Source of the DNA: Eledone cirrhosa
Lineage: Eukaryota
Reading direction: 5' to 3'
Length of the DNA stretch: 64,000 nt
NCBI GenBank assembly: GCA_964016885.1
Contig: CAXHJY010000264.1
Coordinates: 124,001-188,000, forward strand
Positions within the stretch are counted from its first letter, which is position 1; each line of letters begins with the position of its first letter. The notes beneath the pieces are model-generated. The model was not told where the DNA came from and searched no databases. It was given only the letters and a program-made list of their open reading frames with translations. The translations under genes were made by a program, and so were the position numbers. Below are positions 33,175 through 64,000 of this stretch, piece after piece.

Positions 33175-33221
<47 letters not shown>

Positions 33222-33228
33222 TGCACAG

Positions 33229-33345: not shown

Positions 33346-33444
33346 TTGTATATATATATATATGCATGTGTGTATATATGCAAGTGTGTATGTACATGTG
33401 TGTATGTACATGTATAATTTCTATGTGTTAGAGAGAGTGTGTGC

Positions 33445-35110
33445 GTAGACAGGGAGGAGGAGGGTGATTTGGTCGAGGAACAATAAGGTAGATGAGACAA
33501 TTAAGGCTAAGAGACAGACATGGAAGAATGGAGGAAACAGTATACTACATAGAGGCCAGGAGGGAAGCTAGACGACAAGTATATTTGGCAAAGAGAGAAT
33601 AAAAAATACAAGCATGTTTTGCAACGTGAGGACCAGAAACAGAAGGTGTTCAGGATTGCGAGGCAGTGTGTCAGAAAGAATTGTGATGTCATTGGAGAGA
33701 ATTGTATCCAGAATGATAAAGGTGAGCTTGCCCTCACAAGTGCTGAGAAGAAAGCTGCGTGGAAGAGCCATTATGAAAGATTACTAAATGAGGAAAATGC
33801 ATGGGAGAAAGAGACCCTACCCCAAGTGGACCCTACAGAGGGCCCAGCTGTACAAGTTAGCAGCAGTGTAGTAAGGCAATTAAGGATATGAAGACTGGGA
33901 AAGCAGTCGGTCCATCAGAAATAGTTGCTGAGATACTGACAGCATCTGGGTTGGTAGGTCACACCATAACCACCCATATTGTTAACCAAGTAACACTAGA
34001 TGGTGTCATACCAAATGAGTGGCACAGCAGCAATACTAACAATTGCTACAAGGGTAAAGGAGATGCACTAGATAGAGGAAACTATAGAGGTTATACCAAG
34101 TCATGAAAGTAACGTAAAGAGTTATAGCACAGTTGATTAGGGACCGGATAAAACTAGATGAGATGCAGTTTGGATTGGTGCCACTGATGCTCTCTTCCTT
34201 GTGAGACAGTTACGAGAAAAGTACCTAGCTAAAAGTAAGCCTCTCTACCTGGCATTTGTTGATCTGGAGAAGGCTTTTGACAGAGTGCCCTGTGCTATAA
34301 TCTGGTGGGCTCTTAGAAAACTTGGAGTAGATGAATGGCTTCTGAAGGTTGTCAAGCCATGTATAGGGGAGCAGTCAGCAAAGTTAGGACTAACAATGAC
34401 TATAGCGAGGAATTTAGGATAAAGGTTGGTGTCCACCAGGGCTCTGTTATTAGCCCTCCCCTGTTTATTATAGTATTGTAGGCAATAACAGAGGAGTTTA
34501 AGACCAGCTGCCCATGGGAACTCCTGTATGCAGATGATCTCACACTTATAGCTGAATCTATGGAGGAACTAGAGAAGAAATTCCAAACATGGAAGCAGGG
34601 ACTAGAAAGAAGGGGTCTCAAAGTCAACCTGACAAAGACTAAGGTCCTTGTAAGTAGACGAGAAAACAGAACCCAGATCCCCTCAGGGAAATGGCCTTGC
34701 TCAGTATGTAGGAAAGGTGTAGGTAGGAATTCCATCCTCTGCCCCAAATGCCATCAATGGGTACACAAGAGATGTAGCGGGATCTCCGGAAGCTTAACTA
34801 AGTATGTAGGCTTCACATGTAGCAGCTGTGCTGGGACAGCAAGCAGCAAACAGCCACAGCAAACAAGTACCACCAATCTCTGGGAGGGCTCTGTAGAAAC
34901 AGTAGACAGCTTCTGTTACCTAGGTGACCGAATTTGGAGCGGAGGTGGGTGTTCGGAAAGTACAGTAACCAGGGTAAGAATGGGATGGAAGAAGTTCAGG
35001 GAGCTACTGCTAGCTGCAAAAGGCTTTTGCCCTCTAAATGAAAGGTAGACTGTATGATGTATGTATACGAACAGCAATGTTACATGGTAGCGAGACCTGA
35101 GGGTTGTGTT
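33445..35110 (+). mobile_element. Internal fragment of a decayed RTE LINE (subfamily C), truncated at both ends
   Basis: ORFs 33619-33891, 33888-34106, 34201-34422 and 34560-35048 are homologous to the other RTE copies. LLYADD is present near 34520. PHD-like finger CSVC..CPKC..VHKRC..CSSC. Confidence 0.92.
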
Positions 35111-35409
35111 AGAAGATAAATTTAAGGCCTTTTAATTTGTTTTAGCCACAGTGTTTCTGGCCATGCTGGAACACCACCTACAGTGTTGAATTTGGTTGTC
35201 ACCATTTCTTTAGTATAAATTGGTAATTGTTAAGTCCATTGGTAGATGTTGATCTTCTCAGGTTATAGATGGCTGGGTCGCTACATCTTCATCAGAAGTT
35301 TTTAAGTTAAGCTATGACAATGTACTGTATTGCTGATAACCTCAAGGTTATCAGCAGTAGGTGTTTGTCACTAGATTAAGTCAAATCTGATCATTTTTTT
35401 ATGCATAAT

Positions 35410-35480
35410 TTGCACATGGCCTAGTTGTTAGTGTTTGAACTCACAATCATAAGATCTTGGGTTGTATTCCTGGACTGGAC
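35410..35480 (+). mobile_element. Degenerate tRNA-derived SINE head
   Basis: A-box-like TGGCCTAGTTGT and B-box-like GGTTGTATTCC at tRNA-like spacing. Confidence 0.5.
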
Positions 35481-35701
35481 GGGGAAAATAATATATTTCA
35501 TGTTGCTATATCTGCCAGTCACAACTACTGGCAGATAGTATTAGAAATGGAAAAGCCAATGGGGACGTTGACACCTTGGTCTAATCTGGTGATCAGCTCC
35601 TTTCTTTTCCTTGGCTGTGAAGTATATTCCAGACCTCACAACTTTGTATAATTAGGCACATGACTGGTGATGCAGAAGTTATTGTATTTGAAAAGCAGTG
35701 T

Positions 35702-36048
35702 ACTCGATCTGTGATCGTGTGTTAAAACTAAAACAATTAAATCATGGAAGAGTCATTTTAGCCACAGTTGTACATGTCTGGCAGGTGACTTGATCTGAGA
35801 CTGTGTTGAAACTAAAACAATTACATTATGTAACAGTCAGTTTAGCCATTCAAAAACACACCACAATAAATGCTAAAGTTCACTATACATTTATCATTTA
35901 TTTCTAGGGATCAAAACTCTTGTTGCATTGTTTGCAACCCACTCATTGACATAATTCCACTGCAAACTGTAATTTTCAACACCAAGAAATAAATGATAAA
36001 TGTAAAATGAACTTTATCAATTATTGTTTTTCAATAGCTAAAATGACT
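35702..36048. repeat. ~86-bp tandem duplication followed by an imperfect ~65-70 bp inverted repeat (35835-35905 / 35985-36048)
   Basis: GATCT..GTGTT.AAACTAAAACAATTA..AGTCA.TTTAGCCA occurs twice. ACATTTATCATTTATTTCT pairs with AGAAATAAATGATAAATGT. Confidence 0.75.
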
Positions 36049-36289
36049 TCCACAATGTACATAACTAATTTCTTGCAGTCGAAGATGCTCCAATGTGAAT
36101 GCAGCCTCATTTTCAGTTGATAAATTTTGAAAAGAAGTTTAACCTAAAATGACTAACAATCTTTGATCACCAAGATGCGGTGTAAATTTTCAAGGCTTAT
36201 TTTAAGAGGGAAAACCCAACCCCACCGAACATTTTCCATATAAGGATACACGGTAGCTGAGTTATATAATTCTCTAGTGCTGGTAATCT

Positions 36290-36540
36290 ACACAATAAAG
36301 GCACCTGGTACATACTGTAATGTGGTTGGTGTTAGGAAGGGCATCTAGCCTTTTGGTTTGTGTCAAAAGACATGACAACTTCGCCCTTGATAATTACTGT
36401 ACATAAGTGAGATACAGACCTCTCCGGGCCTATCTGGGATATCAGTGGCCCCACTTCAGTCCTGACTTAGTCGATGTAGACATATCTAAGGGAAAGTGGA
36501 TGAAAGTTAAATGATGATGATGACGATGGTGATGATGATA
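36290..36540 (+). mobile_element. Degenerate bipartite RTE-derived/SINE remnant (GGAAGGGCATC motif plus (GAT)n tail)
   Basis: ACTGTAATGTGGTTGGTGTTAGGAAGGGCATCTAGCC, followed downstream by GGAAAGTGGATG..AAATGATGATG. Confidence 0.6.
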
Positions 36541-36685
36541 GTAAACTAATATAAACTGACCATTTAAATATTAGGCTATTGCTGTATATTTATTATTACT
36601 GTAAAAAGATTGTTGTTGAAGGAGTGTGAAGAACAGAAGGTTTTGGTGGTGGTACCTTACATTGTTCTGGTCTATTTCCAGTATA

Positions 36686-36920
36686 GGTGTAGTCATGGCT
36701 GAATAGTTAAGGAGTTTGCTTTGAAACCATATGGTTCGGGTTTGATCCTCCCACTATATGGGACCTGAGGTAGACCTACTATAGTCTTAGGTTTACCAAT
36801 GCCTTGTGGGTAGAATTTGGTAGATGGAAACTGTGTGTGTGTGTGTGCGTCTGTGTGTGTCTGTGTGTCTGCAAGCAGGGAAAAGCGGACGTAAAGTGAA
36901 ATGATGATGATGAAATGATG
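36686..36920 (+). mobile_element. tRNA-derived SINE (octopus-type) followed by a (GT)n run and an RTE-type tail
   Basis: A-box-like TGGCTGAATAG, B-box-like GGTTTGATCC, body CCAATGCCTTGTGGGTAGAATTTGGTAGATGGAAACTG, tail GCAAGCAGGGAAAAGCGGACGTAAA..TGATGATG. Confidence 0.7.
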
Positions 36921-37252
36921 ATATACATATATATTTATACATATATATATATTTATATACATACATATATATATATGTATATACATATATATTTATACAT
37001 ATATATATTTATACATACATATATATATATATATATATACAAATGAATATACGATAGGGATAAACACTGATACAAGTATATATGTGTTTGCATTGCAAAT
37101 GACCAAGTTAGCTAGATTGAAAAATACTAATTAAAATAATACGGTTTGCCTGCCTCGATTTAAAATAATAAATCAATAAAAACAAACCTATATTGGCAAT
37201 AGCCGTGATACCTGGACAAATTTTAAATTTCAAATCTGTTTCGCAACAAAAC

Positions 37253-40200
37253 GCTTGCATGGGTTTGGACGGGAGTTTTCCCACTTGAGGCAAGAGTGGT
37301 TGTCTTGCTCGCATAGGACTGTCTGGCGGGTTTTCTACGGCTGGATGCCCTTCCTAACACCAACCACGTTTACAGTGTGGACTGGGAGGTTTTTACTGTG
37401 TTGCCTACACGGCCACATTACAGCGTGGACTGTGTGTGTTTTTTGTCGTGACACCTACACGACCTCATTTGTTTCGGACTGGATGTTGTGGTACCAACAT
37501 AACTTTACATTGAAAGGGGTGGTGAGGATGAGGTGGGGGTAGTGGGACGGGGTGTATTTTTGTTAGAGGTGCCTACTGACTGTAGTAGGTTTCACTTTGT
37601 AATTAGGTAAGGCGGGTCTTCTGTATTACTGTGTAGCGCCAAAGATCTCAGTCCAGTGACATTGTCTTGGAGAGGTGTAAGTGTGTGAGGTCGGAATTTA
37701 TCAAGTCGTCCCAGGTTTTTCTGGGTCTGCCTACTCCGTGGCTACCGTCTATTTTTATTGCCCTGCACTTTTTTATACAGCTATCGTCTTTCATGCGCAT
37801 CACGTGACCATACCAACGTAATCTTCTCTCAAGTAAACAACATCTGATCCCTCTTATTTCTAATTTTTCCCTTAGTTCGTTTATGCTTTGCCGTTCACGT
37901 ATATTACTATTACACATCCAGCGGAGCATGCAAGCTTCGTTCCTCTCCAGTCTGCATATATCCTCTGCACACAATGCCCAGGTCTCACTGCCATGTAACT
38001 TTGCTGTTCGTATGCAGGCATCATACAGCCTGCCTTTCATTTTTAGAGAGAACCCTTTAGCGGCTAATAGTGGTATAAGTTTCTGAACTTTTTCCATCCC
38101 GTTCTGACTCTAGCTTCTGTACTTTCAGAGCACCCTCCACCACTGCTGATTTTGTCGCCCAAGTAACGGAAGGTGTCCACTATTTCTATAGAACCATCTG
38201 GGCAATGGAATGAGCTAGTATTCTGTGGGCACTTGCTGCTACTTATTGCACCAGAGCACCGCCCACATATAAAATCTAAGTTCTTAGTTAGCTTACCTGT
38301 GATCCCACTACATCTTTTATGCACCCATACTTTGCATTTGGGACATAAAATGGAGTTTCTACCTACGCCTTTCCTACACACTGAACATGGCCATTTCCCG
38401 GAAGGGACCGGCGCCTTATTTTCTTTCCTACAAACTAGAACTTTAGTCTTAGCCAGGTTAATTTTAAGGCCTTTTGATTCTAGGCCATGCTTCCATGTTT
38501 GGAATTTCTTCTCTAGCTCAGCCATTGATTCAACTATGAGCGTTAGATCATCTGCGTATAGGAGTTCACATGGGCAGCCGGTCTTGAACTCCACTGTTAT
38601 AGCCTGAAGGGCAATAATAAATAGTAGGGAGCTAAGAACAGAGCCCTGATGAACACCAACTTTTACGCTAAACTCTTCACTATATTCGTTGTTAATTCTA
38701 ACCTTGCTGACTGTTTCTTTATACATGGCTTCTATAGCTCTCACAAGCCATTCGTCAACACCTAGTTTTCTAAGAGCCCACCAGATAATGGAACGGGGAC
38801 TCTGTCGAAGGCTTTCTCCAAGTCGACAAAAGCTAAGTATAGGGGTTTACTTTTAGCTAGGTACTTCTCCTGTAGTTGTTGTACAATGAAAAGAGCGTCT
38901 GTGGTACTTTTGCCTGACACAAACCCGAACTGCATTTCATCTAGATCAATTCTCTCTCTGATTAGTTGCGCTATTACTTTTTCCGTGACCTTCATGACCT
39001 GGTCGATTAATTTAATGCCTCTATAGTTACTCCTATCTAGGGCATCTCCTTTACCCTTGTAACAGTTAATGATGATGCTGCTACGCCAGTCCTTCGGAAC
39101 AACCCCATTCTGTATGACTTGGTTTACCATCCAGGTGACCATGGTGTGTCCCACCGTTCCAAAGGCTTTCAGCATCTCAGCAACTATTTCCGAAGGCCCA
39201 GCCGCCTTACCCGTCTTCATATCTTTGATTGCCTTACTTATTATACTACCTTCGACTAACACTGCTGGTCCCTCTATTGGGTCGATGTGGGGGAGACTGT
39301 CTTTCTCCCATTTATTCTCCTCATTTAGTAGCCTTTCGTAGTGACACTTCCAAGCTACCTTCTGATCAGCGTCAGTGATGGCAAGTACACCATCATCATT
39401 AAGGACACACTTCTCCCCGACAATATCATGGTTTTCCTTGACACATTGTCTAGCAATCCTGAACACCTCACGTTTTTGGTCCTCGCGTTGTAGAACATGC
39501 TTGAACTTTCTTTCCTCTGCTTCCCTTCTTGCGAAGTACACTTGTCTCCTAGCTTCCCTCCTGGCCACTTGATAGTCTTCTCTACTTGCCCCATCCTGCC
39601 ATACTTTCCAAGCCTGCTTTTTGGCCTTGATTGTCTATTCCACCTTACTGTTCCACCACCATGTTACTCTCCTCCTGCCTACAGGCCTGCTCCAGCCACA
39701 GACTTCATCTGCCGCCATTAGCAGGTTTGCTTTCAGGAATTCCCACTGTTCCTCTATATTGTACGACTCTAATTGCTCTTCCTTACTGTCGAAAGCATCA
39801 AGTAATATGCTTTTAAATTTATTTCTGGCTGTGGGGTCCTTTAGCTTCCATATTTTTCTCCTGAGGATAGTCCTCTTCTGCTGTCTATTACGTCTCGTCC
39901 TGACTATTAGGTCGCTAATTATCAGTCTATGTTGGGAGGTGCATTCTTCATGGGGGATTTAGTGTTTACAACAGACACTCTGTCACGTCTTCTGGTAAGG
40001 ATATAATCTACCTGGCTTGTGTGTTCCCCCGATCTATAGGTGATCAGGTGATTGTCTCGTTTTTTGAAGTTAGTGTTACAGATAGTTAGGTTATTTGCAT
40101 CACAGAATTCCAGGATTCTGGAGCCTTCCTCATTTCTAGTACCAAACCCATAGCCTCCATGGATTCCGTCATAGCCGTCACAATGTTGTCCAACGTGACC

Positions 40201-41310
40201 ATTTAGGTCGCCTGCAATAATTATATAGTCACTGTCGGTTATTTGGGAGGTAGTGAGCATCAGTGTCTCATAGAATCTGTCTTTTATAGTGCCGGGCAGT
40301 CCGGATTGGGGTGCGTACGCAGATATTACTGTCACCGTAGTTCTATTGAGGACAAGTCTTATTTTCATTATTCTGTCGTTCACTCTATTTACATCTATTA
40401 TCTCTTATCTGCCCACTTTTCTGCTACCATCATTCCTACTCCACCCAGCCCATTGTCATTTCCCACCCAGAAAAGCTTATAGCATCGTTCTTTACCCACA
40501 ATGAATTTAGCAGACCCACCCCTCCACCTGGTCTCTTGAATACAACAACCTCCTTACGTTCAAGCATTTCTACAACCTCGTTAGAGCGACCCTTTAAGGT
40601 GCCTACATTCATGGTACCAACTCTGAAGTTTTGGATTGCGTTTGGAGGTTGGGAGCGGTGGGGTGCGAGGGGGAGGGGGGAGATGGGGTTATGTTAGCCA
40701 TCCGCGGCCGAAATAAAGAGGAGGAGTGCTCGCATTCTTGTCCACGAGGTGAATTTGTCTTTATCTTTGGCATTATCGCTGAGCGTCCAGATTTTTCTCT
40801 CTTCGACTCTCCAGAATTCCGTAGTCCGTCCATCATATCGAAAGGTAACCAGGTAAACGATAGTATAGGCCTCTAACTTATGATTGGTCCATGTAATAAT
40901 GGTGGTGCGTGGGGGCAGGTGGGAGGGATGTTGGGTTGTTAGCGAGAAGGTAAGGTTTAAATAAGATCCCCGTATTTTGGGCATAATTTAACAAGCATTA
41001 ACAAAAATACAAGATTTGTTTTGGAAAATACGAGAGGGTATCGAGTAGAAAGGCAAAGATTGGATTCGGGGGGAAAAGATGATAGAGAATGCCGAATGGA
41101 TGGAATAAGGAATTAAAAATGGAGAGGAGAATGAAGAAAATTTGTACGTTACATTATACCATGAATAGGAATTTCGCGGATGTGATTTTTCGTACTTGTA
41201 GGGTTTATCTTATATATATAGATAGAGAGGGGGGGGGGGGGGGGGTTGGCCGCGAACCAGCATGATGTAGGGGGGGGGAGAAGATAGGAGGGAGCAGAGG
41301 TTAAGAGTTT
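37253..41310 (-). mobile_element. Near full-length but frameshifted RTE LINE (family A): 5' UTR, APE endonuclease, RT with PHD-like insert, 3' UTR lacking the extreme tail
   Basis: APE motifs NVGTL, QET, SAYAPQ, GDLNGHVG, SQVDYIL (39922-40383). RT motifs in 38762-39568 and 38064-38744 (LLYADD). C-terminus in 37648-38097. The 5' boundary is approximate. Confidence 0.95.
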
Positions 41311-41350
41311 AAATATATATATATATATTATATATATATATATATTATAT

Positions 41351-41405
41351 CAAACCCATGCAAGCATGGAACATGGACGTTAAACGATGATGATGATGAT
41401 GATGA

Positions 41406-41406
<1 letters not shown>
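41351..41406 (+). mobile_element. Orphan 3' tail of RTE family A
   Basis: AAACCCATGCAAGCATGGAACATGGACGTTAAAC(GAT)n matches 33043-33096. Confidence 0.8.
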
Positions 41407-41438
<32 letters not shown>

Positions 41439-41449
41439 ATGACCATGCT

Positions 41450-44400
41450 GTAAAATGGAGGGGTAGAGAGGGCCCTTGAGTCTAGTAAGACATCCTCTCT
41501 AGTGTTGGTGGCACAAATAAAAGCACTGAGTCCATGCTGTAAAGTGGCGCTGGTGTTAGGAAGGGCATCCAGCCAGTGTATCACTGCCAAAACTCTTATC
41601 AGCACAGCAACAAATAGGAACAACAACAAAATATGAAGACGTCGCATCTCAGAGTTGCAACACTTAATGTTGGCACTCTCAGAGGTAGATCTGCTGAAAT
41701 AGCGGAGATGCTGGAGAGAAAGCAGGTGGATGTGTGCTGCGTGCAAGAGGTAAGATGGAGAGGTGCCTCTGCGAGACTAGTCGTAGGAAAGCGTCTTAGC
41801 TATAAGCTATTCTGGGTAGGTAAGGATGATAGGCTAGGGGGAGTAGGCATTTTCCTGGCTGAGAAATGGATCAATAAGACAATAGAGGTAGTTCGAGTTA
41901 GTAATCGAATAATTAAGCTTAGATTAGTTGTAGGTAGGAGACTACTGACAATCATCTCGGCCTATGCTCCCCAAGCAGGCCTAGGCAAAGATGAGAAAGA
42001 CTGCTTTTATGAGCAACTTTTGCAAACAACCGCAATGACAGAGGACGGAGACATCGTTATGCTAGCAGGAGACTTCAATGGTCATGTTGGACAGCTCCAG
42101 GATGGTTACACTGGGGTACATGGTGGGCACGGTTACGGTTCAAGAAAAGAAGAAGGAGTGAGACTTCTTGAATTTTGTGATGCAAGTACATTGACTATTT
42201 GCAACACAAACTACCAGAAACCTGCCAATCACCTAATAACCTACAAATCTGGTGAGCACATAAGCCAGATTGACTTCCTGCTAGTTAGGCAGCGGGACAG
42301 GCAGATAGTGTCTAATACCAAGGCATACCCTGGGGAAGAATGTACCCCACAGCATAGGTCAGTTGTTAGTGATATCTCAGTAAGCAAGAGATGGAATGAG
42401 ACATATAGGAAAGTGTGGAGAAGAAAGGTCTGGAAGCTAAAAGACCTTTCACTAAAATACAAATTTAGGAAAGCCCTTCAAGATGTATATGACGAAAAAG
42501 AAAACGATTTAGAGACGTATGACATAGATAATAACTGGAATTTCTTACGTGACAACTTGCTGCAGGCTACTGATGAAACCTGTGGCTGGAGCAGAGCTCC
42601 AACCAGACAGAGAGTGACCTGGTGGTGGAACAGCACAGTAGATAAGGCTATTAGAGACAAAAGACTAGCATGGAAGGCTTGGAAAAAGGGTGGGAGTAGG
42701 GAAGAATATACAGCCACTAAGAGAGAAGCTAGACGTCAAGTGTACTTAGCACGCAGGGAGGCAGAGAGTAGGAGGTTTGCCAATGTTCTGCGACGGGAAG
42801 ATCAGAGGCGTGCGGTGTTCCACATTGCAAGGCAGTGTGTCAATGCAAATCAGGATGTTGTTGGGGATAAATGTGTCCGGGATGATGCCGGTGTACTTAG
42901 TGTCACGAATGATCAGAAAAAGGAGGCCTGGAAATGTCATTATGAGAGACTGATGAATGTGGAGAACGAATGGGAGAGAGAGAAATTACCCTTGGTGGAT
43001 CCGACAGAGAGACCAGCTATTGAGATTGACGAATATAGGGTCCAAGAGCCGATTAGGGAAATGAAAAATGGTAAGGCTGCCGGACCATCGGGAATAGTTG
43101 CTGAGATGCTGAAGGCATCAGGGGACGTAGGCACTAAACTGGTTGCACGCATCATCAATCAGGCTATATATGGTGGTGTCATACCCAAAGACTGGTGCAG
43201 CACTATTCTCATAAATTGGTACAAAGGTAAAGGGGATGCTTTGGAGAGGAGCAATTATAGGGGTATAAAACTGATAGATCAGGTTATGAAAGTGGCAGAA
43301 AGGATTTTAGCACAACTAATTAGAGAAGGGGTCAAACTAGATGAGATGCAGTTTGGTTTTGTGCCTGGGAAGAGTACAACAGATGCCCTCTTCTTGGTGA
43401 GACAAATGCAAGAGAGGTTCTTAGAGAAGAATAAGCCACTATACTTAGCCTTTGTTGACCTAGAGAAGGCCTTTGATAGGGTACCCCGATCTGTCATCTG
43501 GTGGTCCCTAAGGAAGCTAGGTGTTGAGGAATGGCTTGTGAGGACAGTGCAAACTTTGTACAGAGGTACTCTGAGTAAAGTCAGGGTAGGAATGGAGTTT
43601 AGTGAGGAATTCCAGATACAAGTAGGAGTACATCAGGGTTCGGTCCTCAGCCCGCTCTTGTTCATTATAGTCCTCCAAGCCACAACAGAGGAGTTTAAGA
43701 CTGGCTGTCCATGGGAACTTCTCTACGCTGGTTCCTACTGGTTCTTATAGCAGAATCAGTAGAGGAGCTAGAGAATAAATTCTGGCTATGGAAACAGCAG
43801 TTGGAAGCAAGAGGACTGAGAGTGAATGTAGCTAAGACAAAAGTGTTGATGAGTAGAAAAGAGGACAAAACCCTGATTCCGTCAGGGAAATGGCCATGTT
43901 CGATATGCAGAAAAGGAACTGGCATAAATTCTATAAAATGCACACAATGCAGATCCTGGGTACACAAGATATGTAGCGGGATAGCAGGCAAACTAACAGG
44001 TAGGGAGAAATATGTATGCAGTAGATGTACAGGGAAATTAGACAGTAGAAGTCGCATTGATAGACACATTTTTCAAATGCAAGAGGCCGCTATAGAAGTG
44101 GTGGATAGCTTCCGGTACCTAGGAGATCAGATTAGCATGGGAGGAGGGTGTTCCGAGGCCATAGTATCTAGAATAAGGACGGGTTGGAAGAAGTTTAGGG
44201 AGCTGCTTCCTCTGTTAACGAAGAAGGGTTTCTCCCTGCGTACGAAAGGCCGGTTGTATGATGCCTGTGTGAGGAGCGCGATGCTGCATGGGCAGCAACT
44301 GCAGAGGATATGCGACGGCTGGAGAGAAATGAGGCAAGCATGCTCCGTTGGATATGTCCGTTGTAAATGTGCGTGAACGACCCAGCATAAATGTGTTGAG

Positions 44401-44714
44401 AGAGAAACTGTGTCTGAGAGGGATAGAATGTAGTGTACGGGAGAGAAGACTGAGGTGGTTTGGACATGTGATGCGCATGGAGGATGACCGATGGGTGAAG
44501 AAGTGCCAGGAATTGCCAGTTGAAGGAAGACGTGGTAGAGGTAGACCATGAAAAACATGGGCGGAGGTGGTGAGAACAGACCTCAGATCATTGAAGCTCA
44601 CGGTGGAGATGACGAAGAACCGTGATGAGTGGAGAGATGGCTGTGTTGAATAAGACCCGTCCCACCCTTGCAAGCAGGGAAAAGCGGACGTAAAATGATG
44701 ATGATGATGATGAT
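41450..44714 (+). mobile_element. Near full-length RTE LINE (family B), inactivated at the RT catalytic site
   Basis: 705-aa APE+RT ORF, then frameshifted C-terminal segments, a very short 3' UTR and an (ATG)n tail. Confidence 0.95.
41633..44650 (+). pseudogene. RTE ORF2-type polyprotein (APE endonuclease + reverse transcriptase + PHD-like finger), disrupted
   Basis: LNVGTL, VQEVRW, GDFNGHVG, SQIDF, KAAGPSG, NYRGIKL, FVDLEKAFD, HQGSVLSP. YADD is replaced by YAGS at a frameshift (43724-43747). Further indel near 44290 and a stop near 44549. Confidence 0.92.
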
Positions 44715-44746
<32 letters not shown>

Positions 44747-44818
44747 ATTATATAAATATATATTATATATATATATATTATATTATATATATTATATATA
44801 TTATATATTATATATATA

Positions 44819-44853
<35 letters not shown>

Positions 44854-44855
<2 letters not shown>

Positions 44856-45600
44856 CATCATCATCATTTTACGTCCACTTTTCCGGTGGGACGGGGTGTA
44901 TTTTGTTAGAGATGCCTACTGGCAAGGCGGGTCTTCTCTGTTACTGAGTACCGCCAAAGGTCTCGGTCCAGTGACATTGTCTTGGAGAGGTGTAAGTGTG
45001 TGAGGTCGGAGTTTATCAGCTCGTCCCAGGTTTTTCTAGGTCTGCCTATTCCGTGGCTACCGTCTATCTTTATTGCCCTGCACTTTGTTATACAGCTATC
45101 GACTTTCATGCGCATCACGTGACCATACCAACGTAGCCTTCTCTCGAGTAAACAACATCTGATCCCTCTTATTTCTAATTTCTTCCTTAGTTCGTTTATG
45201 CTTTGCCGTTCACGTATATTACTATTACACATCCAGCGGAGCATGCAAGCTTCGTTCCTCTCTAGTCTGCGTATATCCTCTGCACACAATGCCCAGGTCT
45301 CACTGCCATGCAACATTGCTGTTCGTATGCAGGCATCGTACAACCTGCCTTTCATTTTTAGGGAGAACCCTTTAGCAGCTAATAGTGGTATAAGCTCTCT
45401 GAACTTTTTCCAACCAGTTCTGACTCTAGCTACTGTACTTTCAGAGCACCCTCCCCCACTGCTGATTTTATCGCCCAGGTAACGGAAGCTGTCCACTATT
45501 TCTATAGAACCCTCTGCGCAAATGAAAGAGCTAGTATTTTGTGGGCACTTGCTGCTACTTATTGCACCAGAGCACCGGCCACATGTAAAATCTATGTTTG
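44854..45600 (-). mobile_element. 3' fragment of RTE family A with a deleted 3' UTR joined to a family B-type tail
   Basis: ORF 44906-45496 (FRYLGDKIS...RRLRWYGH...GRPRKTW). The minus strand reads ...CCCGTCCCACC|GGAAAAGTGGACGTAAAATGATG. Confidence 0.9.
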
Positions 45601-45613
45601 TGTATATATATAT

Positions 45614-45957
45614 CTAAGGCGGGTAAAATTCCCGAGATCCATGGACGAGTTCTCTCCAGCGGTCTCTGTCCCTCATTATCGCTGCCATGTCCTGCATCTC
45701 CAACAGTCCAGTGTCTGTCCTTAGGGCATCAACATATGTTAACCTTGGTCTTCCTCTTCTAGTGTGTCCATGTAGGGGCTCCCAAATGAGCACTGAGTGC
45801 AATGTCAACTCTGGATGTCGGTGAGCATGTCCAGCCAACCTCAGTCTCCTCTGTGTCACTTTTGAGCTGACTTTTGGGATGCTCCCATACAGCTCTGAGT
45901 TTTTCATCCTCAGTGTATACTGATTAATGTTCAGAGCCATCCTCAGCATTCTCGTGT
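45614..45957 (-). mobile_element. 3' fragment of a distinct RTE-group LINE (family D)
   Basis: TRMLRMALN...LYG...RRLRLAGH...WEP.HG...RGRP..TY.D.L..DTGL...DRDRWR, a typical RTE-group C-terminus. The stop codon abuts (TA)n. Confidence 0.85.
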
Positions 45958-47172
<1,215 letters not shown>

Positions 47173-47174
<2 letters not shown>

Positions 47175-48090
47175 CATCATCATCATCATCATCATCAACG
47201 TTTAACGTCCGTGTTCCACGCTTGCATGGGTTTGGACGGGGGTAGTCCCACTTGAGGCAAGAGTGATTGTCTTGCTCGCATAGGACTGTCTGGCAGGTTT
47301 TCTACAGTTGGATGCCCTTCCTAACACCAACCACATTTACAGTGTGGGTCTGGGAGGTTTTTACCGTGTTGCCTACACGGCCACATTACAGCGTGGACTG
47401 TGTGTTTTTTTGTCGTGACACCTACACGATCTCATTTGTTTCGGCCTCGATGGCGCGGCACCAACATAACTTTACATAGAACGGGGTGGTGTGGATCGGG
47501 TGGGGGTGGTGGTGGTGGGACGGGGTGTATTTTGTTAGAGATGCCTACTGGCTGGAGTAGGTTTTACTATATATTTAGGTAAGGCGGGTCTTCTCTGTTA
47601 CTGAGTACCGCCAAAGGTCTCGGTCCAGTGACATTGTCTTGGAGAGGTGTAAGTGTGTGATGTCGGAGTTTATCAGCTCGTCCCAGGTTTTTCTAGGTCT
47701 GCCTATTCCGTGACTACCGTCTATCTTTATTGCCCTGCACTTTGTTATACAGCTATCGACTTTCATGCGCATCACGTGTCCATACCAACGTAGCCTTCTC
47801 TCGAGTAAACAACATCTGATCCCTCTTATCTCTAATTTTTTCCTTAGTTCGTTTATGCTTTGCCGTTCACGTATATTACTGTTACACATCCAGCGGAGCA
47901 TGCAAGCTTCGTTCCTCTCTAGTCTGCGTATATCCTCTGCACACAATGCCCAGGTCTCACTGCCATGCAGCATTGCTGTTCGTATGCAGGCATCGTACAA
48001 CCTGCCTTTCATTTTTAGTGAGAACCCTTTAGCAGCTAATAGTGGTATAAGCTCTCTGAACTTTTTCCAACCAGTTCTGACTCTAGCTAC
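47173..48090 (-). mobile_element. 5'-truncated RTE family A copy with complete 3' UTR and (GAT)n tail
   Basis: [14 protein letters not shown]...EKTRLT. Nearly identical to the 44925-45433 region. (ATC)n at 47173-47196. Confidence 0.93.
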
Positions 48091-51332
<3,242 letters not shown>

Positions 51333-54152: not shown

Positions 54153-54315
54153 AGGGAGTGTAACTTGGAGTTACTGTAAGGTTCACCTTGTTATCTTATA
54201 TATATATATATATAAACTTGAAGACTGCCGACCGGACTAGAAACTGTTAAATATTTGGCCACCTTCTTGTCTCCCGGCCTTTTCAGCTCCATGGATTTTG
54301 TCTATTATATTTCGA

Positions 54316-54373
54316 ATACCTGATGATGTAACCGGATTCATACTGAACCCAGTCATTGAAATGATCATAGTAT
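54316..54373 (+). ncRNA. Type I hammerhead ribozyme motif, copy 1
   Basis: ATAC-CTGATGA-[stem II with TTCA-TAC-TGAA]-GAAA-TGATCA-TA^-GTAT. Palindromic stem III ATGATCAT. AATAAA at 54374-79. The base of stem II is imperfect. Confidence 0.72.
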
Positions 54374-55331
54374 AATAAACCTTTTAAGGAATTACACCAG
54401 TCCAGCCTCCTGTTATTTTATAATAATTAACTCCGTACTCGCACCAGCAACAACGCAAACGAAGACAGATGAGTTGCATTACGTCGAGTGCTCTCCCTAA
54501 TATTACATCGAGGTTGACCACACGGAATGACCAGTTCTATCCAGTGGTGAACCAACAAACCTAAATGAATAAAGCTCCAGGAAATGTCGAGCGTTTCCAG
54601 ATGTAGGAAGGAACAGGGGCCTTGGCACCAGCATACAGCTATCGTCAACATGGGACTAACTGCACACCATTCGGATTTTGGCTGCATTAAGCTATGTCTA
54701 CCACCCTCCCGGACCATGCATTGCTGCTTCCGCCAGGAACACTCAAACTCCGTCAGACCTCACAGATTATTTTAAAAAATCAACATATTCTATTATACCC
54801 TGTCTTGTATTGACTGAATTCTCTATCCTATATTTCAAGGTTTTGGGATTCACATGGAAAATTAAGACTCGAACCTACACTACGTGTCACCTGATACCAC
54901 TCCTACTCTTCCATCCTCTCTATATTTATATATTCTCCAACCGTGTTATCTATTGCTTATTTGCTACACCTTAATCTCTATTTTATTTCTTCTGTATTTT
55001 GATTTCTTCGATATGTTTTTATTTACTTCCATTTTTACTCCCACAATTACCACTCTGGGTATGACTACATTTTATTTATGTATTTATTCACTTTACTCTC
55101 CTTATATACTTATCCTTGTACTCATCTGTTACCTAAAATTAACATACGATCCTAGAATATTACTTTCTGTACCCTTTATATCTGTTTATCTTTAAACACT
55201 CCCCATACCCACTCAGGAATCACATTACATATAACCCGGGCTAACTGGGGACTAAATATAGTATTCTTACCCATTTCATCAGATTTTGCCACTTTTAAAC
55301 TTCACATCACGGGTGTGAATAACTAATAATC

Positions 55332-55533
55332 GTTTGGTGCACTCGATGATCCAACTGATGTGGCGGCTTTCCCGATTGCACGCCAGGCACTCGAGTCGAT
55401 CAGCCTTGCTAGAGTGCTTGGAAAAATAAATTTCCCTTTCTTTCGGTAAACGAAAATACTCGGAACGGTTGTTTCGCCCTGGGGCCCTGTCGGGCTTGGA
55501 ATCCGCCGTGCTACCGGTTATTGACCGCCAAAC
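55332..55533 (+). ncRNA. Unknown ~200-nt structured RNA, copy 1
   Basis: Nested stems GTTTGGTG/CGCCAAAC, TGATC/GGTTA, TGTGGCGG/CCGCCGTG, CCCGAT/GTCGGG, CCAGG/CCTGG, CAGCC/GGTTG, GAGTG/TACTC. Apical hairpins GGAAA-AATAAA-TTTCC and TTTCG-GTAAA-CGAAA. Confidence 0.7.
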
Positions 55534-55635
55534 TGTACCTTTAAATTCTAGGCTTAATCATAACTTTAAAATTTATCATGCCTCCTTCTACTAGCCCTTT
55601 AACTAAATCCCCCACCAGTGTGAATAACTAATAAT

Positions 55636-55834
55636 CGTTTGGTATACACGATGATCAGCCGACGGTAGCGGGCTTCCCGCTAACACCCCGGCAACAGTTA
55701 ACATTCCTGGAGTGCTCGGAAAAAATAAATTTCCCTTTCTTTCGGTAGACGAAAATACTCGGAACGGTTGACACGTCATTGGGCCCCGGGTGGGCTGAGA
55801 GTCCGCAACGACGCTGGTTACAGACCGCCAAACG
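55636..55834 (+). ncRNA. Unknown ~200-nt structured RNA, copy 2
   Basis: Same fold with different stem sequences: CGTTTGGT/GCCAAACG, TGATCAGC/GCTGGTTA, GCGGGCT/AGTCCGC, CCCGCT/GGTGGG, CCCGG/TTGGG, GTTAAC/GTTGAC, TTCC/GGAA, GAGTG/TACTC. Same two apical hairpins. Confidence 0.7.
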
Positions 55835-56320
55835 GGCTTAATCTTAACTTTATATTCTACCCTGAAACTTTATCGTGACTATCAATAATACACTTAACCT
55901 TTTCATAAACTCCTCCGTCTGTAAATTCTTTAACTAAATCTTACTTTTCTAATCTCATCTTAAATGACATCTTTTAATTCTAAACATAAATGTTACCTTT
56001 CTAATCGTTAATCGTAATTTCTGACCCTACAATGACAAATCATTATATATAGCTTTGTTAAAGATATATGGTTTTTGAAAAAATATATTTCTTAGCACTT
56101 CTGACCAACTTCAGTGTAACCTGATCCCACCGCTGGCCTCTCTCCATGACAGGGTGGTTGTAGCGCACTATGAGCTTACGCCCCTTCACCAGAAAGACAT
56201 AAGAAAATTTAGTAGTCCTCACTTGAAGACGGCCGACCGGACTAGAAACTGTTAAATATTTGGCCACCTTCTTGTCTCCCGGCCCTTTCAGCTCCATGGA
56301 TTTTGTCTATTATATTTCGA

Positions 56321-56378
56321 ATACCTGATGATGTAACCGGATTCATACTGAACCCAGTCATTGAAATGATCATAGTAT
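56321..56378 (+). ncRNA. Type I hammerhead ribozyme motif, copy 2
   Basis: Identical to 54316-54373 and exactly 2005 nt downstream. Confidence 0.72.
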
Positions 56379-56566
56379 AATAAACCTTTTAAGGAATTAC
56401 ACCAGTCCAGCCTCCTGTTATTTTATAATAATTAACTCCGTACTCGCACCACCAACAACGCAAACGAAGACAGATCAGTTGCATTACGTCGAGTGCTCTC
56501 CCTAATATTACATCGAGGTTGACCACACGGAATGACCAGTTCTATCCAGTGGTGAACCAACAAACC

Positions 56567-56602
<36 letters not shown>

Positions 56603-56610
56603 AACAAGTA

Positions 56611-56658
56611 GGACCCCGACGGCTGAGCTCAAGCCGTTTCGATGGCTAATTCTTGACT
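56611..56658 (-). ncRNA. 3' half of a hammerhead ribozyme (truncated)
   Basis: Minus strand reads ...AGCCATC-GAAA-CGGCT-TGAGCTC-AGCCG-TC^-GGGGTCC. Stem III and the GUC triplet are perfect. The CTGANGA half is absent and an A/TA tract lies in its place. Confidence 0.5.
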
Positions 56659-56670
56659 AAAAAAAAAAAA

Positions 56671-58020: not shown

Positions 58021-60140
58021 TCTTCTGGTTTTATAATTTCACAAAGTTTTACCAATAGAGAGAGAGTCGGTTTCTAACATAGACACAAGACTCTCATTGG
58101 AATTTACACAACATCAACTAGGTAGATATGTATGTATGTCTGCATGTGTAGATATGGATGTTATTGTATGTTTTGAGTTGTATGTGTGCATGTGTATATG
58201 CTTTGTATCTGTATATGTTTATATGCAGTTATTAGATGCAACATTTTTGGAATGTTTTACATATTTTTACTATTCCATTAATGGATTGTACTTGTAATTT
58301 CCTAACTAGTTGTCTTCTTTCTGTTCCTGTGAAGCCCAGCTTCTCAAGATTTGTATTGAGGCAGTTACTAACATATCCCAGTGCCCCAATAATCACAGGC
58401 ATAAATCTGAAGGTGTAATCAGGGTGGAGTATCTGCAGATTTCTCATTAGTTCTGCATAAATATTCTCCTTTTCGCTAATCGTTAATATTATATTGGCAT
58501 CTGCTGGGCAGCTAACTTCGACTACGGTGCATGCCTTCTTTTTCCTGTCCCATATCACAATATCTGGTCTGTTATGCCTTCATTTTATTGGGGTTTTTAC
58601 TGGAACATTCCACCAGTACTCTTTCATAATATGTCTAAGGATTTCCTCCACATTGCTGTAGCTTTTAATGTGTTTATTATCGGGGCTATCTTTTTTACGA
58701 ACTGCATTGTACAGTGTTTTGGCCACTACATCATGCCTCATAGGTAGATAGTACCGCGATGACATCTTTGGACAGCTGCTGATGACATGGGTGATATCCT
58801 CGATGTTAGTTCTGCAGAGTCTGCACTTGTTATCACATCTAGGTGTTTTGCCTGCATCCCTATCTCTTTTGTGAATCAGGTATTTCGTGTTAATCTCCTG
58901 TTCTTGGATTGCAAAAGCGTATCCTTCAAAGTGGGAGCCAATATAGCGGTTGTTGGTCCAAGATAGACTACTTTCCTTATCTATATTACTCTCACTCTGG
59001 AGCTTCTTGGCAACATATCCATGCATGATTTTTGCCGATAAGCATGCAGTTTTTCATCCATGGATTCACTGCGATATGCTGAGCGACATCCCTGGGTGAG
59101 AGTTTTTGATTATCACACAGGGAATATCTCTCGAGGAGTTCCTTCCCAACTCTCATGATCTTATCTGTTTCATGCAGATAGACTTGCTCGAGAAACGGGC
59201 TCCTACGCTTCGAGTTTCGTAGATGTTGTCGGAGAGATATGATGAGACATTCAAATGCTGTCTGGATTGATGTTAGGCCTCTGCCTCCCTGCTACATTTC
59301 AAGTAAATCCTATATCCTTTGAGAACGTTGTAACCAGGTCAAGATTTTTCTTCATACCATCCATGTTCTTGGCATAGAGTTTCAGATCGTCCACTAAGAA
59401 ATTATGGGTTAGGTTCGATTTTGTGTCCTCCTGTGAGCCAATGATGTATCCCTCACATTTCTTGAGCAGAAAGAACAAGGGTTTTAATGACAAGATGAAC
59501 AATATCACAGAGAGACTGTCCCCCTGAAATATACCCCTGCAATATTTTATTTTATCAGTGAAAATAGAGTCCTCCCTCTCTGTCTTTAACCTTAGGATAG
59601 TAGTCCCAGAAGAAGACAGCTGCTCTATGGCTCTGACAATAATGTCTGGGACTTTAGCATGTCGGAGGGCCTATATCTTCCAAGAGTGGGGAACAGAATC
59701 GAAAGCTTTCCTGCAGTCCAGCCAGACTGTAGCCACATTCCTCCGACATCGCAGTTTTATTGATTAGGAATTGTTCAGCACACACCCAAACCCTTTTCTT
59801 TCCAGATGCTTGTTCATCTGTGATGATGTTATTATTTTCACGGTGATCTTGGAGGAATGGGTTCAGGCAGGCTGTATACATCTTATACATCAGGTTCTGG
59901 CATGCAATGGGTCGGTAGTTTTTTGCCAAGTGGGTGTCTTTGTTCTTGGGGACCAGTAATGTTTGTGCTAATGTCAACCATTCTGGTATAAGTGTATCTC
60001 CCTTAAGAACTTGTTGGTAGAGGTCAGTAAGATACCTCCGATAGAATATCAGTTTTTTGTACCAGTAGCCGACAATCATGTCTCTTCCTGGTGTTTTCTT
60101 ATCTTGGAGTTTTCCTATCACAGTCTCAAGGGTACCCTCA
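58021..60140 (-). mobile_element. 5'-truncated, decayed R4/Dong-like non-LTR retrotransposon (RT + CCHC + restriction-like endonuclease)
   Basis: KTPGRDMIVGYW, NYRPIACQN, FLVDDLKLY, CRLC..EDITHVISSC, RHD, PDIVIWD..VVEVSCP...KENIY. Frameshifts and an internal deletion. The 3' end abuts (TACA)n. Confidence 0.9.
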
Positions 60141-60180
60141 CATGTATGTATATTATCTCTTTCTCTTAATTTCGAGTATA

Positions 60181-63100
60181 TTTTTTTGACCGGCCACCTT
60201 CCTGGTGGCAAGGTTGTAAAAGAAAAGAAATTGTCATCCCTTGAATCGCAAGAATGTTTTGCAAATTTTGAAGGTGCCAGCTATCGCAGCCATTTGTAGA
60301 CTATGAATTAGGGAGCTGCGCTTTTTGTCCGCAAATCCAAGTTCAGTCATACTTTGGTCCAAGCGGGTTGGTATATAACCCGTAGCTCCAATAATGATGG
60401 GTATGAAGCTAAAGGTATATCGTGGATACTGGATTTGTAAACTCCTCATCAATGGTCCGTAGATGTCCTCCTTCTCCTGTATTTTTCTGACAACGTTTAC
60501 ATCAAGTGGGCAGCTGATTTCCACAACAGAACACGTTTTCAATGTACGGTCCCAAACAACAATATCAGGCCGGTTGTGCTTTAATTTGGTGGCAGTTTTT
60601 ATTTTCAGGTTCCACCAGTATTCCTTAGTGCCATCTGTCTCAATATATTCTTCCTCGTTTGTTGTTAATTTTGTTTTCCGAAGTCCTTTCCAGATGGTTC
60701 TAGCCATCCCATCATGTCTGATGGGGAGGTAGTAGCGAGATGACATTCTTTCGCAGCTGGCAACAATGTGGCTTACATCCTCGATCTTTGTTTTACATAG
60801 CCTACATTTATTGTCAGCTGCTGGCCCTCCTCTTTTGTGCAGCAGATATTTGGTAGGGAGTTCTTGTTCCTGTATTGCATAGAGATATCCCTCAAGGTGT
60901 GATGTCATAAACTTGTCGGAACTTCATGCCAGGCTTTTTGAGTGGTATACCCCCTCTATAGTCTGTGTTTTACGTCTCAAGTATCCATGCACAACTTTTT
61001 CTGTAAATTGGTCAATTTTTTTATCTTGTTTGAACATTGAATAGGATCTTCCGATTTCTCTGGGTGAGAGATTTATATCAGGCTTTATTCCATATCTCTC
61101 CTCCAGATCAGTCGCTATTCTAATGATATTTTTTTTTCATGCTCATAAACCTGGGCAAGATGGTTGCCAACTTTTTTCCTCTGTTGAAGGTGTTGCTTCA
61201 GTGTTACTATCCGGGTCTCATATGTTGTTAATATTGATTTTAGACCTCGGCCACCTTCCTTGCGTGAGAAGTATAGCCTATCCACATCACCATTGATGTT
61301 AAAGTTCCCAGTAACACTGAGAAGTTTGCGAGTTCTAACATCCATCTCACTTAGTTCTTGCCATGACCAGTTCAGCAGGCCAAATGTTGGCGTTAGAATT
61401 GGCACAGCATAAGTATTGTGGGCAATGTATTTGTTGTACGCTGACAGTTCTGATGACCATATTTTCTTTACTCTTCTGAGGTATTCAGTTCTGGTTCTCT
61501 CCTTATTTATGAGTCCATCATATCTGACATTCTCATCCTGTCCAAGATATCTGTAGTTGTCACCTGACTGTAGAGGTTGTATTGTCAGGCCGTTCATCTC
61601 TAGATTTCTAGAGGAGGGCACAGCTCTTCTACGTTTTACTGCCAAATATGCACACTTGGACTCACCAAATTTCATTTTGATGTCGGTTGAAAATTGTGTA
61701 ATGAGGTCCAATTGTTTCTTGATGTCATTGATATTTGGCCCATACAACTTCAAGTCATCAACAAAGAAAAGATGGGAGATACTTCTGGGCCCACTTCTTT
61801 GTCCACCTTGTTTCCTGAGTAGGTAAGATAGTGGATTCAGTGAGAGAACGAAGAGTAGCACTGACAAGCTATCACCCTGAAAGATGCCCTTCTGGTAATG
61901 TATCTTATCAGTCTTAACTTGCTCCTTCTCACCTCTAAGGATCAAATTGGTGTACCAGTTCTTGGTCAGGCGTTCAACAGCAGCTACCAATGGTTGTGGG
62001 ACTTTGGCTAACTGTAAAGCCTTAATAATCCACCCATGAGGTACACTATCAAATGCTTTTTGATAGTCCAGCCACACCACAGTCATGTTTCTGCGATTCT
62101 TTGTTGTTTTTTCCTGAATCATTTTGTTAGTTAGTAGGTGATCTATGCAACCCCACACCTCCCTCTTTCCACCAGCTTGCTCAGGTGTTATGATGTTGTT
62201 GGTAGCACAGTGATCCTGTAAGAACAGGTTAAGGCACCCAGTATATAATTTATACATGATGTTTTGGCAGGCAATTGGGCGGTAATTTTTAGCAAGGGTG
62301 GTTTGGCTATTTTGGGGAATGAGGAGAGTAGTGGCAGTTGATAACCATCTGGGCAGTTCTTGTGTGCCTTTAATGGTTTCTGTGAACAGCCGTATGAGAT
62401 CTTGTCGATAGAAAGTGAAATTCTTCAACCAGTATCCTGTAATGAGGTCTGGGCCTGGTGATTTCCTATTCGACATTTTCTGTAGAGCTGTTTCCAGTAT
62501 TGACCCATCTGTGTCATATTGTTTTGTCTGGACATGTTGGCAGTAGTCCTGTTCCAGTTCTTTTAGCCATTTAGTTTGTCTGTTGAATCCGTCATCCATT
62601 TCCCATACAAATCTCCAGTAGCTCTCAACCTGTTCTTTTGAAGGGGTGTCGTTTACAGGGATTGAGCTTTTGCCACCGAAGCTGCGATAAACTGATTTAG
62701 GATCTCTGGCAAACAATCTATTTAGCACTTGTCGTTTATGTGCTGTTGACTTATATTTTAGTCTTTCTGTTGTAGCTGTGAGTTGTTGTTTCAACTGGTG
62801 TAATTTGGAGTTCAAAGTTTTAAATTTTGTATCTCCAAATCGTCTCTCTAACTTTTTTTTTAGGTCTTCCTGGTGTCGTGTGAAGTTGCTCTCTATGTTG
62901 CATTTCATAACGACTGCGATGTGTGAGATACTTCGTCTCAGGGACAAAATTTTGCTTTTTAAATTTCGCATCCACGCTGGTTCAGGCTTTCTGTTTGTAT
63001 CTTGATTGCGTGGTTTTAGATGTGTGTTATATGATAGCAATGTGACAGCTGAAACATATAACAAAATATTAAGCGTTTCAAATGTCGTTTCTACACCTTT

Positions 63101-63742
63101 AGATCGTATAGCCTTCAGATAATTGCCAGCTATTTCGTTCACCGCTTCCAATTCCAATTTAGTGGGTTCTTTACTGATTCTGGTGTTGTATGGTCTGTCA
63201 CTCACATTAAGGCTGTGTATCTCTTGAAACATATCGTTCCATATCACTTGTAAGGTGTCCACAAGTTTTTGGTGTTCTGTTTGTACAGTAGAGTCATGAA
63301 TTTCAGCCTCGTTGTTGATGTGGTGACAATTACTACTAGAGTCAGCTGACCTTTCTCGCTGTTCTTCAGTGGAAGTGGGATGGATTTCAGCAAAATTGTT
63401 GGTGAGCTGTTCACTGTTAGATTTGGCTGGCCATTCTCTTTGTCTGTCAGTGGAGGTGGGGTGGTTGTCTACAAGGGCTGTATTTGTAGTATCACTCAAT
63501 TCCGTTAGATGTATCAATTTACATCTAATGATACGTTTTGCCTGTTCATTTAAATGCTTTGGAGAAAAGTCTAATTCTGGGTGTTTGGAGTTCCATAAAG
63601 TTTTTAGCCTTTGCATAAAACCGAACTTTTGGGGTTCAGATTGTTTGTATGCTTCATATAATTCTTTGTTAAGCTCGCAGCTCCACTGTATACAACGGTT
63701 GTAATTGCGATTTGGTCGAAGGAGACTTGTACTTTTTGCCAT
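60181..63742 (-). mobile_element. Near full-length R4/Dong-like non-LTR retrotransposon
   Basis: 875-aa ORF plus a 224-aa C-terminal segment, then a ~45-nt 3' UTR with a hairpin and A7. The 5' UTR may extend toward 64000. Confidence 0.92.
60234..63742 (-). pseudogene. R4-clade polyprotein: Myb-like N-terminus, RT, CCHC knuckle, REL endonuclease; disrupted at ~61115-60908
   Basis: QWSCELNKEL..Y...FMQRLKTLW...P, KSPGPDLITGYWLK, NYRPIAC, WLDYQKAFDSVPH, GIFQGDSLS, FVDDLKLY, YRYLG, CRLC..HIVASC, RHD, RPDIVVWD..VEISCP..KEDIY. Confidence 0.9.
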
Positions 63743-64000
63743 GATGAGTTCGTCTATTCACTAATATTTCGTATTTATTTTTCAAAATAGTCGATGATCT
63801 TCTTTAAAAGTTTCGACAAAATTCTGTCAGAATCAAATTTAAAGTTATTCACAGCTTGGGTAATATTTCTTTTCAGTTAGTTTTTAATTCTACAACTGTG
63901 TTTTAAACGTTGTTCTTGAATCGTTTGAATCGAGAACAAAAAAAAAAAAACCGTTACTTAGTATATTTCTTTATGAATGTAATATAATATAACAACGCTG

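Follow-up and report, generated by a model that had tools for sequence, protein, structure and literature searches.

An ORF-less, hammerhead-bearing element of Eledone cirrhosa is one copy of a dispersed Penelope-like lineage with a conserved internal RNA module

Introduction

At positions 54216..56571 of the DNA analysed here (hereafter the window, 64,000 nucleotides of Eledone cirrhosa contig CAXHJY010000264.1, assembly GCA_964016885.1, positions 124,001 to 188,000), two direct repeats that each contain a hammerhead ribozyme motif enclose an interior without a credible reading frame. A preliminary description read this as a non-coding parasite of Penelope-like elements (PLEs), or a retrozyme-like unit, carrying a duplicated structured RNA. 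This raises the questions of what kind of element it is, from which RNA it is copied, and what its interior is for.

Results

Layout of the insertion

The insertion consists of the following parts:

54216..56571, + strand: whole insertion, one 2005-nt unit plus a 351-nt terminal overlap, between (TA)n runs
54216..54566, + strand: 5' pseudo-LTR, the 5'-truncated start of a second unit, of copy-specific length
56221..56571, + strand: 3' pseudo-LTR, terminating at the 'long' 3' end (see below)

The two direct repeats described before (54216-54566 and 56221-56571, 351 bp each, offset by 2005 bp) were reproduced at the same coordinates, with four mismatches, at 54226, 54280, 54447 and 54471. The absence of a credible ORF was upheld as well, the longest ATG frames of the 2005-nt monomer being 63 aa on the + strand and 96 aa on the - strand. 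There is no coding capacity for a reverse transcriptase (RT) or endonuclease (EN) in the element, and comparison of the 54216..56571 unit with six PLE proteins from its own genome gave nothing significant (best E 0.14). For the unit and five relatives, ARAGORN found no tRNA, and Rfam, at both the gathering and the E-value level, had no family near threshold; a SINE head derived from a small RNA (tRNA, 5S, 7SL or snRNA) was therefore rejected, as homology to a parent RNA was absent.

Elsewhere, the window holds a satellite of 24-26-nt units with a higher-order spacing of ~5.7 kb (1-29700), many LINE fragments including a 710-aa frame at 41618-43750 (30700-48700), which we take from their motifs to be RTE-like, and fragments of another non-LTR type including an 880-aa frame at 61115-63757 on the - strand (58580-63757). 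A piece of another repeat, present beside (TA)n in many loci (L073, L095, L242), occupies 56600-56660.

A dispersed family with several subfamilies

The element is one copy of a dispersed, ORF-less PLE lineage with thousands of copies. In the 3.0-Gb source genome, exact patterns, whose counts are lower bounds and count many insertions twice, matched at 6378 sites for the hammerhead (control 1), at 7006 sites for a pattern 33 nt downstream (control 0), and at 917 sites for the module core described below (control 0), so that the element is multi-copy and dispersed and not single-copy. A first-look DNA search, in which the best 40 candidates of each query were scored, returned 3318 candidates for the repeat, 1656 for the modules and 586 for the 5' interior, a gradient typical of 5' truncation. 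The nearest relative, among the best 40 of 3318 candidates scored, was 92% identical. By eye, the relatives were sorted into at least six subfamilies, A-F, of which A includes the 54216..56571 copy. Their units measure 1978-2905 nt; in the young subfamily B, whose copies are about 99% identical, they span 2362-2905 nt, and subfamily F is older. No subfamily had an ORF of its own in the stretches read.

A reading of the 351-bp repeat as a fixed, LTR-like part was not supported: the 5' overlap ranges from a few bases to 1116 bp. Because 5' ends vary in this way among copies, 351 bp is the terminal overlap peculiar to the 54216..56571 copy. Its two repeats have in common 11 letters seldom seen in 24 other copies, against only 4 positions of difference. 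The divergence between them is 1.1%, versus 4-14% within other A copies, and private changes amount to 1.3-1.4%, versus 1.7-2.6% in three others. Because of this low repeat divergence and the fewer private changes, the copy is, judged by its sequence, probably a late A insertion; the private changes likewise weaken a reading as an old, decayed copy. Family A has a possible 5' splice site at ~54469, which was missing from B and F and was dropped.

Two 3' ends and PLE hallmarks

Copies are truncated at the 5' end, and an inverted piece often lies next to them. Of 30 sampled 3' ends, 29 pass into (TA)n, and they do so at either of two positions:

54425 (equivalent 56430), + strand: family 'short' 3' end, putative RT start site 1; loose ends before (TA)n, unused by the 54216..56571 copy
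54426..54571, + strand: AC-rich 'tail' between both 3' ends, 141-146 nt
54566-54571, + strand: 'long' 3' end, putative RT start site 2, overlapping an AATAAA

In one sample, contigs from three runs (X1-X3) showed loose ends at the same two places, 54425 and 54566/54571, each leading into (TA)n. These places sit 56 or ~200 nt downstream of the predicted ribozyme cut, and conservation around the tail extends to about 54620. Among 39 inverted insertions, 32 combined a long with a short end, one was long/long, two were short/short and four were unclear, a count biased to long ends as the loci were partly picked with long-end queries. The PLE protein of the anole is described as cutting AT-rich DNA on both strands, and copying of that element starts at two internal sites, the spacing of which equals the tail (PMC11167929). 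As the long/short pairing fits these two internal starts, we infer that the two 3' ends are RT start sites, one per DNA strand. PLE tails are given as 30-40 bp, together with (TA)n targeting and the pseudo-LTR layout, in PMC8557442, and the tail of 141-146 nt is 4-5 times this published length.

Taken together, the features of a non-autonomous EN+ PLE are present: a variable, partial-tandem pseudo-LTR, 5' truncation with inversion, a one-sided tail, a hammerhead, (TA)n, and no RT/EN ORF. With dispersed copies, these hallmarks and the lack of an ORF, the earlier reading as a non-coding, hammerhead-bearing, PLE-type parasite was borne out. A second hammerhead family (L048, L107, L259, L081:4460), with the palindromic stem III TGCGCA, (TA)n targets and no linked ORF, has two 3' ends roughly 90 nt apart and a similarly long tail.

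The hammerhead motif and the ends of copies

Each repeat contains a hammerhead motif and, about 100 nt upstream, a GC-rich hairpin:

54316..54373, + strand: type I hammerhead motif of the PLE type with a palindromic stem III, cut predicted after 54369
56321..56378, + strand: second hammerhead motif, predicted cut after 56374
54221..54265 (also 56226-56270), + strand: GC-rich hairpin upstream of the ribozyme, damaged in both repeats here

The type I core and the palindromic stem III claimed for both repeats were found in place, with CTGATGA at 54320/56325, GAAA at 54358/56363, and the self-complementary stem III ATGATCAT. The AATAAA said to follow stem III directly lies at 54374-54379 and comes after the four nucleotides of the stem I 3' strand. 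In an alignment of 12 copies from different subfamilies, pairing was found in 94.6% of cells, compared to 24-35% when the structure was slid. Stems I and II showed compensatory changes, with a score that none of 500 shuffles reached, which, these being related sequences, is not a probability; stem III is invariant in this alignment and thus contributes no covariation. In F, G-U pairs preserve the self-complementarity of stem III (-7.2 and -6.0 kcal/mol for the 8-bp duplex), and some A copies have a U-U in it. The G10.1-C11.1 pair is lacking: 11 of 12 rows have two opposed U residues at the stem II base. An Rfam scan gave no hammerhead match above threshold in the window, the relative L126 reaching 19 bits (E 1.5) with HH9, and the minimum free energy fold of the monomer did not reach the active form. 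On the evidence of the alignment, the hammerhead is under selection. The upstream hairpin has other letters and the same fold in B and F, and its stability is -14.1 kcal/mol here, versus -23.7, -28.0 and -28.7 in three relatives. Dozens more hammerhead-like motifs with a palindromic stem III, of many families, were seen across all fetched loci.

Cleavage of a read-through transcript had been expected to release an exact 2005-nt monomer that could circularise and be mobilised in trans. A search for copies extending beyond the long end gave 27 sites, of which 4 from another repeat were discarded and 23 kept. Fourteen of these longer-than-unit copies start at unit positions 216 to about 350, and the other 9 pass upstream through the cut (154|155); none stops there, the nearest start being 138. 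The downstream-anchored copies passed through the cut in 29 of 30 cases, and TATATA joined straight to the cut occurred at 9 sites genome-wide, two of which are one locus, counted at the cut position alone. Because the 5' ends of copies do not collect at the cut (0/23, with 9/23 reading through), copying does not usually start from the linear 2005-nt RNA that ribozyme cleavage would release. Overlaps in B reach 893 and 1116 bp, and none of the loci read, each at most 10 kb, contained two full units in an array. A joint in X1-X3 that 'goes back 2005' was considered as a sign of a circle and rejected, since it is merely the intact repeat in DNA-like contigs.

A conserved module in the interior

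The structured RNA cargo noted earlier corresponds to a conserved module of ~200 nt in two copies, of predicted shape:

55332..55533, + strand: module 1, irregular rod capped by a three-way junction (predicted fold)
55412..55461, + strand: module 1 apical core, closing stem and two 5-bp hairpins with loops AAUAAA and GUAAA, near-invariant
55637..55833, + strand: module 2, diverged duplicate with a 7-nt deletion in the 54216..56571 copy (predicted fold)
55710..55760, + strand: module 2 apical core, loops AAUAAA and GUAGA (predicted fold)

The internal duplicates (55313-55533 and 55618-55833) are 75% identical. All module cores sampled (30/30) belonged to this non-coding lineage; part of the core served to select the first sample, and B and F were reached through the repeat. 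Core identity was 88% between A and B, with spacers at 38-70%, and 94% between A and F, with spacers at 54-80%. The fetched stretches of some subfamilies contain one module, and A and B contain two, with periods of ~305 and ~510 nt, respectively. From sequence comparison, the module appears to have been duplicated twice independently.

Alignment folds made separately for modules 1 and 2 had the same layout, with 43 of about 70 pairs in common. Taken alone, the window's modules 1 and 2 had stability z scores of -1.3 and -1.1, and slightly wider bounds gave -2.4 and -2.0. In 11 of 13 copies z was below -2, and antisense folds were often stable too. On a structure hand-drawn from the same sequences, 89% of cells were paired versus 35-50% when slid, and its covariation score was matched by 5 of 500 shuffles. 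In comparisons across subfamilies, 17 of 17 cases, which are not independent, folded at least as well as the average control with permuted letters (z from -0.02 to -2.9), the window's own copies reaching only -0.02 and -0.8. One-sided changes tolerated by G-U pairing favour the + strand. The core pairs never vary and so carry no covariation, and an unweighted RNAalifold run over the mixed subfamilies returned chiefly the apical core. The overall shape, a rod with a three-way junction, is a likely model and pair-level covariation is modest. The exact pairs of the lower rod are not proven, because a blind cross-test of module 1 against module 2 was null (9 of 21 changed pairs kept versus 9.6 expected).

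The module matches no Rfam family and is in this sense a new part of the element; resemblances to SECIS, C/D box, IRES, 7SK and SRP RNAs were dropped for lack of an Rfam match. Outside the source genome, the module gave no hit in viral contigs, and in metagenomes none and then two chance matches of 17-20 bits. Positions 54577-54590, just past the long end, are nearly complementary to 55700-55713 in the stem below the module 2 core; this complementarity is weaker in module 1 and in subfamily B, and is possibly due to chance.

Search for an autonomous partner

GIY-YIG candidates number 10,597 genome-wide. The genome contains PLE ORFs with RT matches, and three of five tested match GIY-YIG too. 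A long example of 938 aa has a CxxxxCxxC linker, which marks Neptune-like PLEs (PMC8557442), and by this motif it would be Neptune-like. An autonomous PLE sharing the repeat or the module was not found in the loci covered: a module model built from 14 copies had no match in 35 GIY-YIG loci, from 150 scored of the 10,597 candidates, and none of 30 hammerhead sites had a PLE ORF within 1.5 kb. The two best-covered PLE families terminate in (TA)n without this repeat. Several candidates were rejected. Locus L069, which resembled a PLE ending in this pseudo-LTR, carries subfamily B as an insertion of its own. The L192 family proved to be a further, divergent subfamily that is non-coding and has the module. 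No similarity was seen in the other hammerheads located close to PLE ORFs, and an 18-nt motif common to another repeat is antisense there, without a tie to an ORF. Two young PLE families with RT and GIY-YIG domains (L064, L065, L069, L072, L073, L075; L070, L076, L081) have 3' UTRs of more than 1 kb and a (TA)n end, and no hammerhead was detected at that end.

Discussion

Comparison with known elements

The closest parallels are MRC1, a Chlamys-type element of Chlamydomonas (PMC8557442), and the pLTR-flanked captures of Adineta vaga (PMC3846280), which likewise have pseudo-LTRs, no ORF and an inferred mobilisation in trans, and which, as here, show truncated and inverted insertions and microsatellite targets. 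They share ends with a known autonomous family, whereas none was found here, and the accounts of them in these two papers report, as far as they bear on these elements, no conserved internal RNA module or long series of ORF-less subfamilies. With the Poseidon PLE of Anolis (PAc), as described in PMC11167929, the element shares AT-rich targets, a hammerhead in the pLTR, and two internal 3' ends that lie in an AC-rich stretch past the hammerhead and not at the cut; PAc is autonomous with a usual tail of 30-40 bp, whereas the present element lacks an ORF and has a tail of 141-146 nt. Animal non-LTR retrozymes, too, have a type I hammerhead per repeat, no ORF and a proposed PLE origin (PMC7229834; bioRxiv 10.64898/2026.07.22.740005). 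Their monomers are given as 170-400 nt (PMC7229834) and 51-972 nt (bioRxiv 10.64898/2026.07.22.740005), compared to units of 1978-2905 nt here, and they are described as forming tandem arrays with demonstrated circular RNA, whereas copies of the present element, known from DNA, are dispersed and show the truncations and inversions of PLEs. As its unit size (2005 nt) and arrangement differ, its classification as a retrozyme is not supported. The hammerhead resembles the minimal PLE hammerheads of PMC4209133 in being type I with a short stem I, a palindromic stem III and a predicted dimer, and differs in its longer, irregular stem II, the missing G10.1-C11.1 pair and an 8-nt palindrome.

Our literature search found no description of such an element or module; Repbase and Dfam were outside its scope, where an unlabelled consensus may exist. 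For Octopus vulgaris, recently active Penelope-like and unknown families are described, in the relevant part of PMC13282606 without such detail.

Possible explanations

We consider it probable that the element is a protein-free, non-autonomous PLE that uses a borrowed RT-endonuclease, a nick in (TA)n DNA and two fixed internal starts, its hammerheads probably remaining uncut. Transcription through a unit would give a read-through RNA longer than one unit and uncut, to which a PLE protein made elsewhere would bind. This enzyme would nick (TA)n DNA, and copying would proceed from the long start on one strand and from the short start on the other. Mostly it would terminate early, and rare runs past one unit would rebuild the 5' overlap. 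The hammerhead would be weak and would depend on dimerisation or on a protein. If the anole element is a guide, the signal bound by the enzyme may be located around the tail, and the rod with its junction may be a selected RNA element presenting a protein-binding tip.

A large circular retrozyme would be an alternative source of the variable overlap: the hammerheads would cut as dimers, the 2005-nt RNA would be ligated, and a PLE RT would copy it round more than once. Such a route has been proposed for PLEs in PMC4209133, where PLE hammerheads are also described as poor cutters in vitro, and cleavage is dispensable for the anole PLE (PMC11167929). The head-to-tail junction is seamless, with overlaps of widely varying length, and copies read through it, as a ligated circle would permit, so that the junction data agree with a ligated circle as well as with an uncut read-through RNA. 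The circle also accords with the letters shared between the repeats (11 rare ones, against 4 differences), which suggest one template sequence for both, and with the self-complementarity of stem III kept by G-U pairs in the older subfamily; the lack of an end pile-up at the cut (9 exact sites versus 7006) speaks against it. We favour uncut RNA because PLE hammerheads cut poorly, the G10.1-C11.1 pair is absent and no two-full-unit array was seen among the loci read, and regard the circle as rather unlikely. That the element arose simply by deletion from an ORF-bearing PLE, or is a locally duplicated segment without mobility of its own, is largely refuted and very improbable. Deletion is a frequent origin of non-autonomous elements, and the partner search covered 35 loci around 150 of 10,597 GIY-YIG candidates; however, the hundreds to thousands of dispersed copies, the several subfamilies of different ages without an ORF in the stretches read, and the lack of any protein relic in the unit speak against it.

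For the module, a main role as an ENE-type stability element, in which the poly(A) tail would be held by a U-rich internal loop near the rod's base and the non-coding RNA thereby protected, has a small chance of being correct. In non-A subfamilies, U-runs on both strands lie, by eye, beside a G-C stem, the layout described for ENEs (PMC7583470), and such elements are reported in plant transposon RNAs (PMC7583470, PMC12501189); however, in family A, including the 54216..56571 copy, the U-runs are interrupted, the best-kept part is the apical junction and not the U-rich loop, and there is no Rfam match. Slightly less likely still is that the conserved core acts as a DNA-level signal (an internal promoter or factor sites) or as a working poly(A) signal, with the fold being incidental. 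The invariance of the core pairs, hence the absence of covariation, and the null cross-test of the two modules would suit a DNA signal, and the first core loop is an exact AAUAAA. Yet the flanking arms alter their sequence and still out-fold permuted controls, one-sided changes are often G-U-compatible on the + strand, and a working poly(A) site in the middle of the unit would remove the ends needed for copying.

If the module is instead a protein-binding RNA element of the non-autonomous PLE proposed above, it might recruit a host factor or the PLE enzyme and so help a non-coding RNA to compete with the enzyme's own mRNA, a tentative suggestion made by analogy. In Alu, a doubled SRP domain helps a non-coding RNA compete with the mRNA of the enzyme it uses. 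More doubtful is the wider picture of a long-lived, 2-3 kb lineage of protein-free PLE parasites that has its own, new-class, rod-mounted three-way junction for capturing the telomerase-related PLE enzyme or a host RNP, whose doubling was selected twice, which would make it the PLE counterpart of dimeric Alu, with replication possibly passing through a circle made by the ribozyme, whose size would exceed that of any animal retrozyme several-fold.

Significance

To our knowledge, the choice of RNA by PLE enzymes and their priming are barely known, with one element reconstituted in vitro. An ORF-less parasite retains only the parts that work in cis, so the lineage marks candidate signals, namely the upstream hairpin, the hammerhead, the two start sites and the undescribed module. 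The thousands of insertions provide genomic support for one start site per DNA strand, and also for a ribozyme-cut linear RNA not being the usual template, and the young subfamily B, with its closely similar copies, supplies near-intact sequences.
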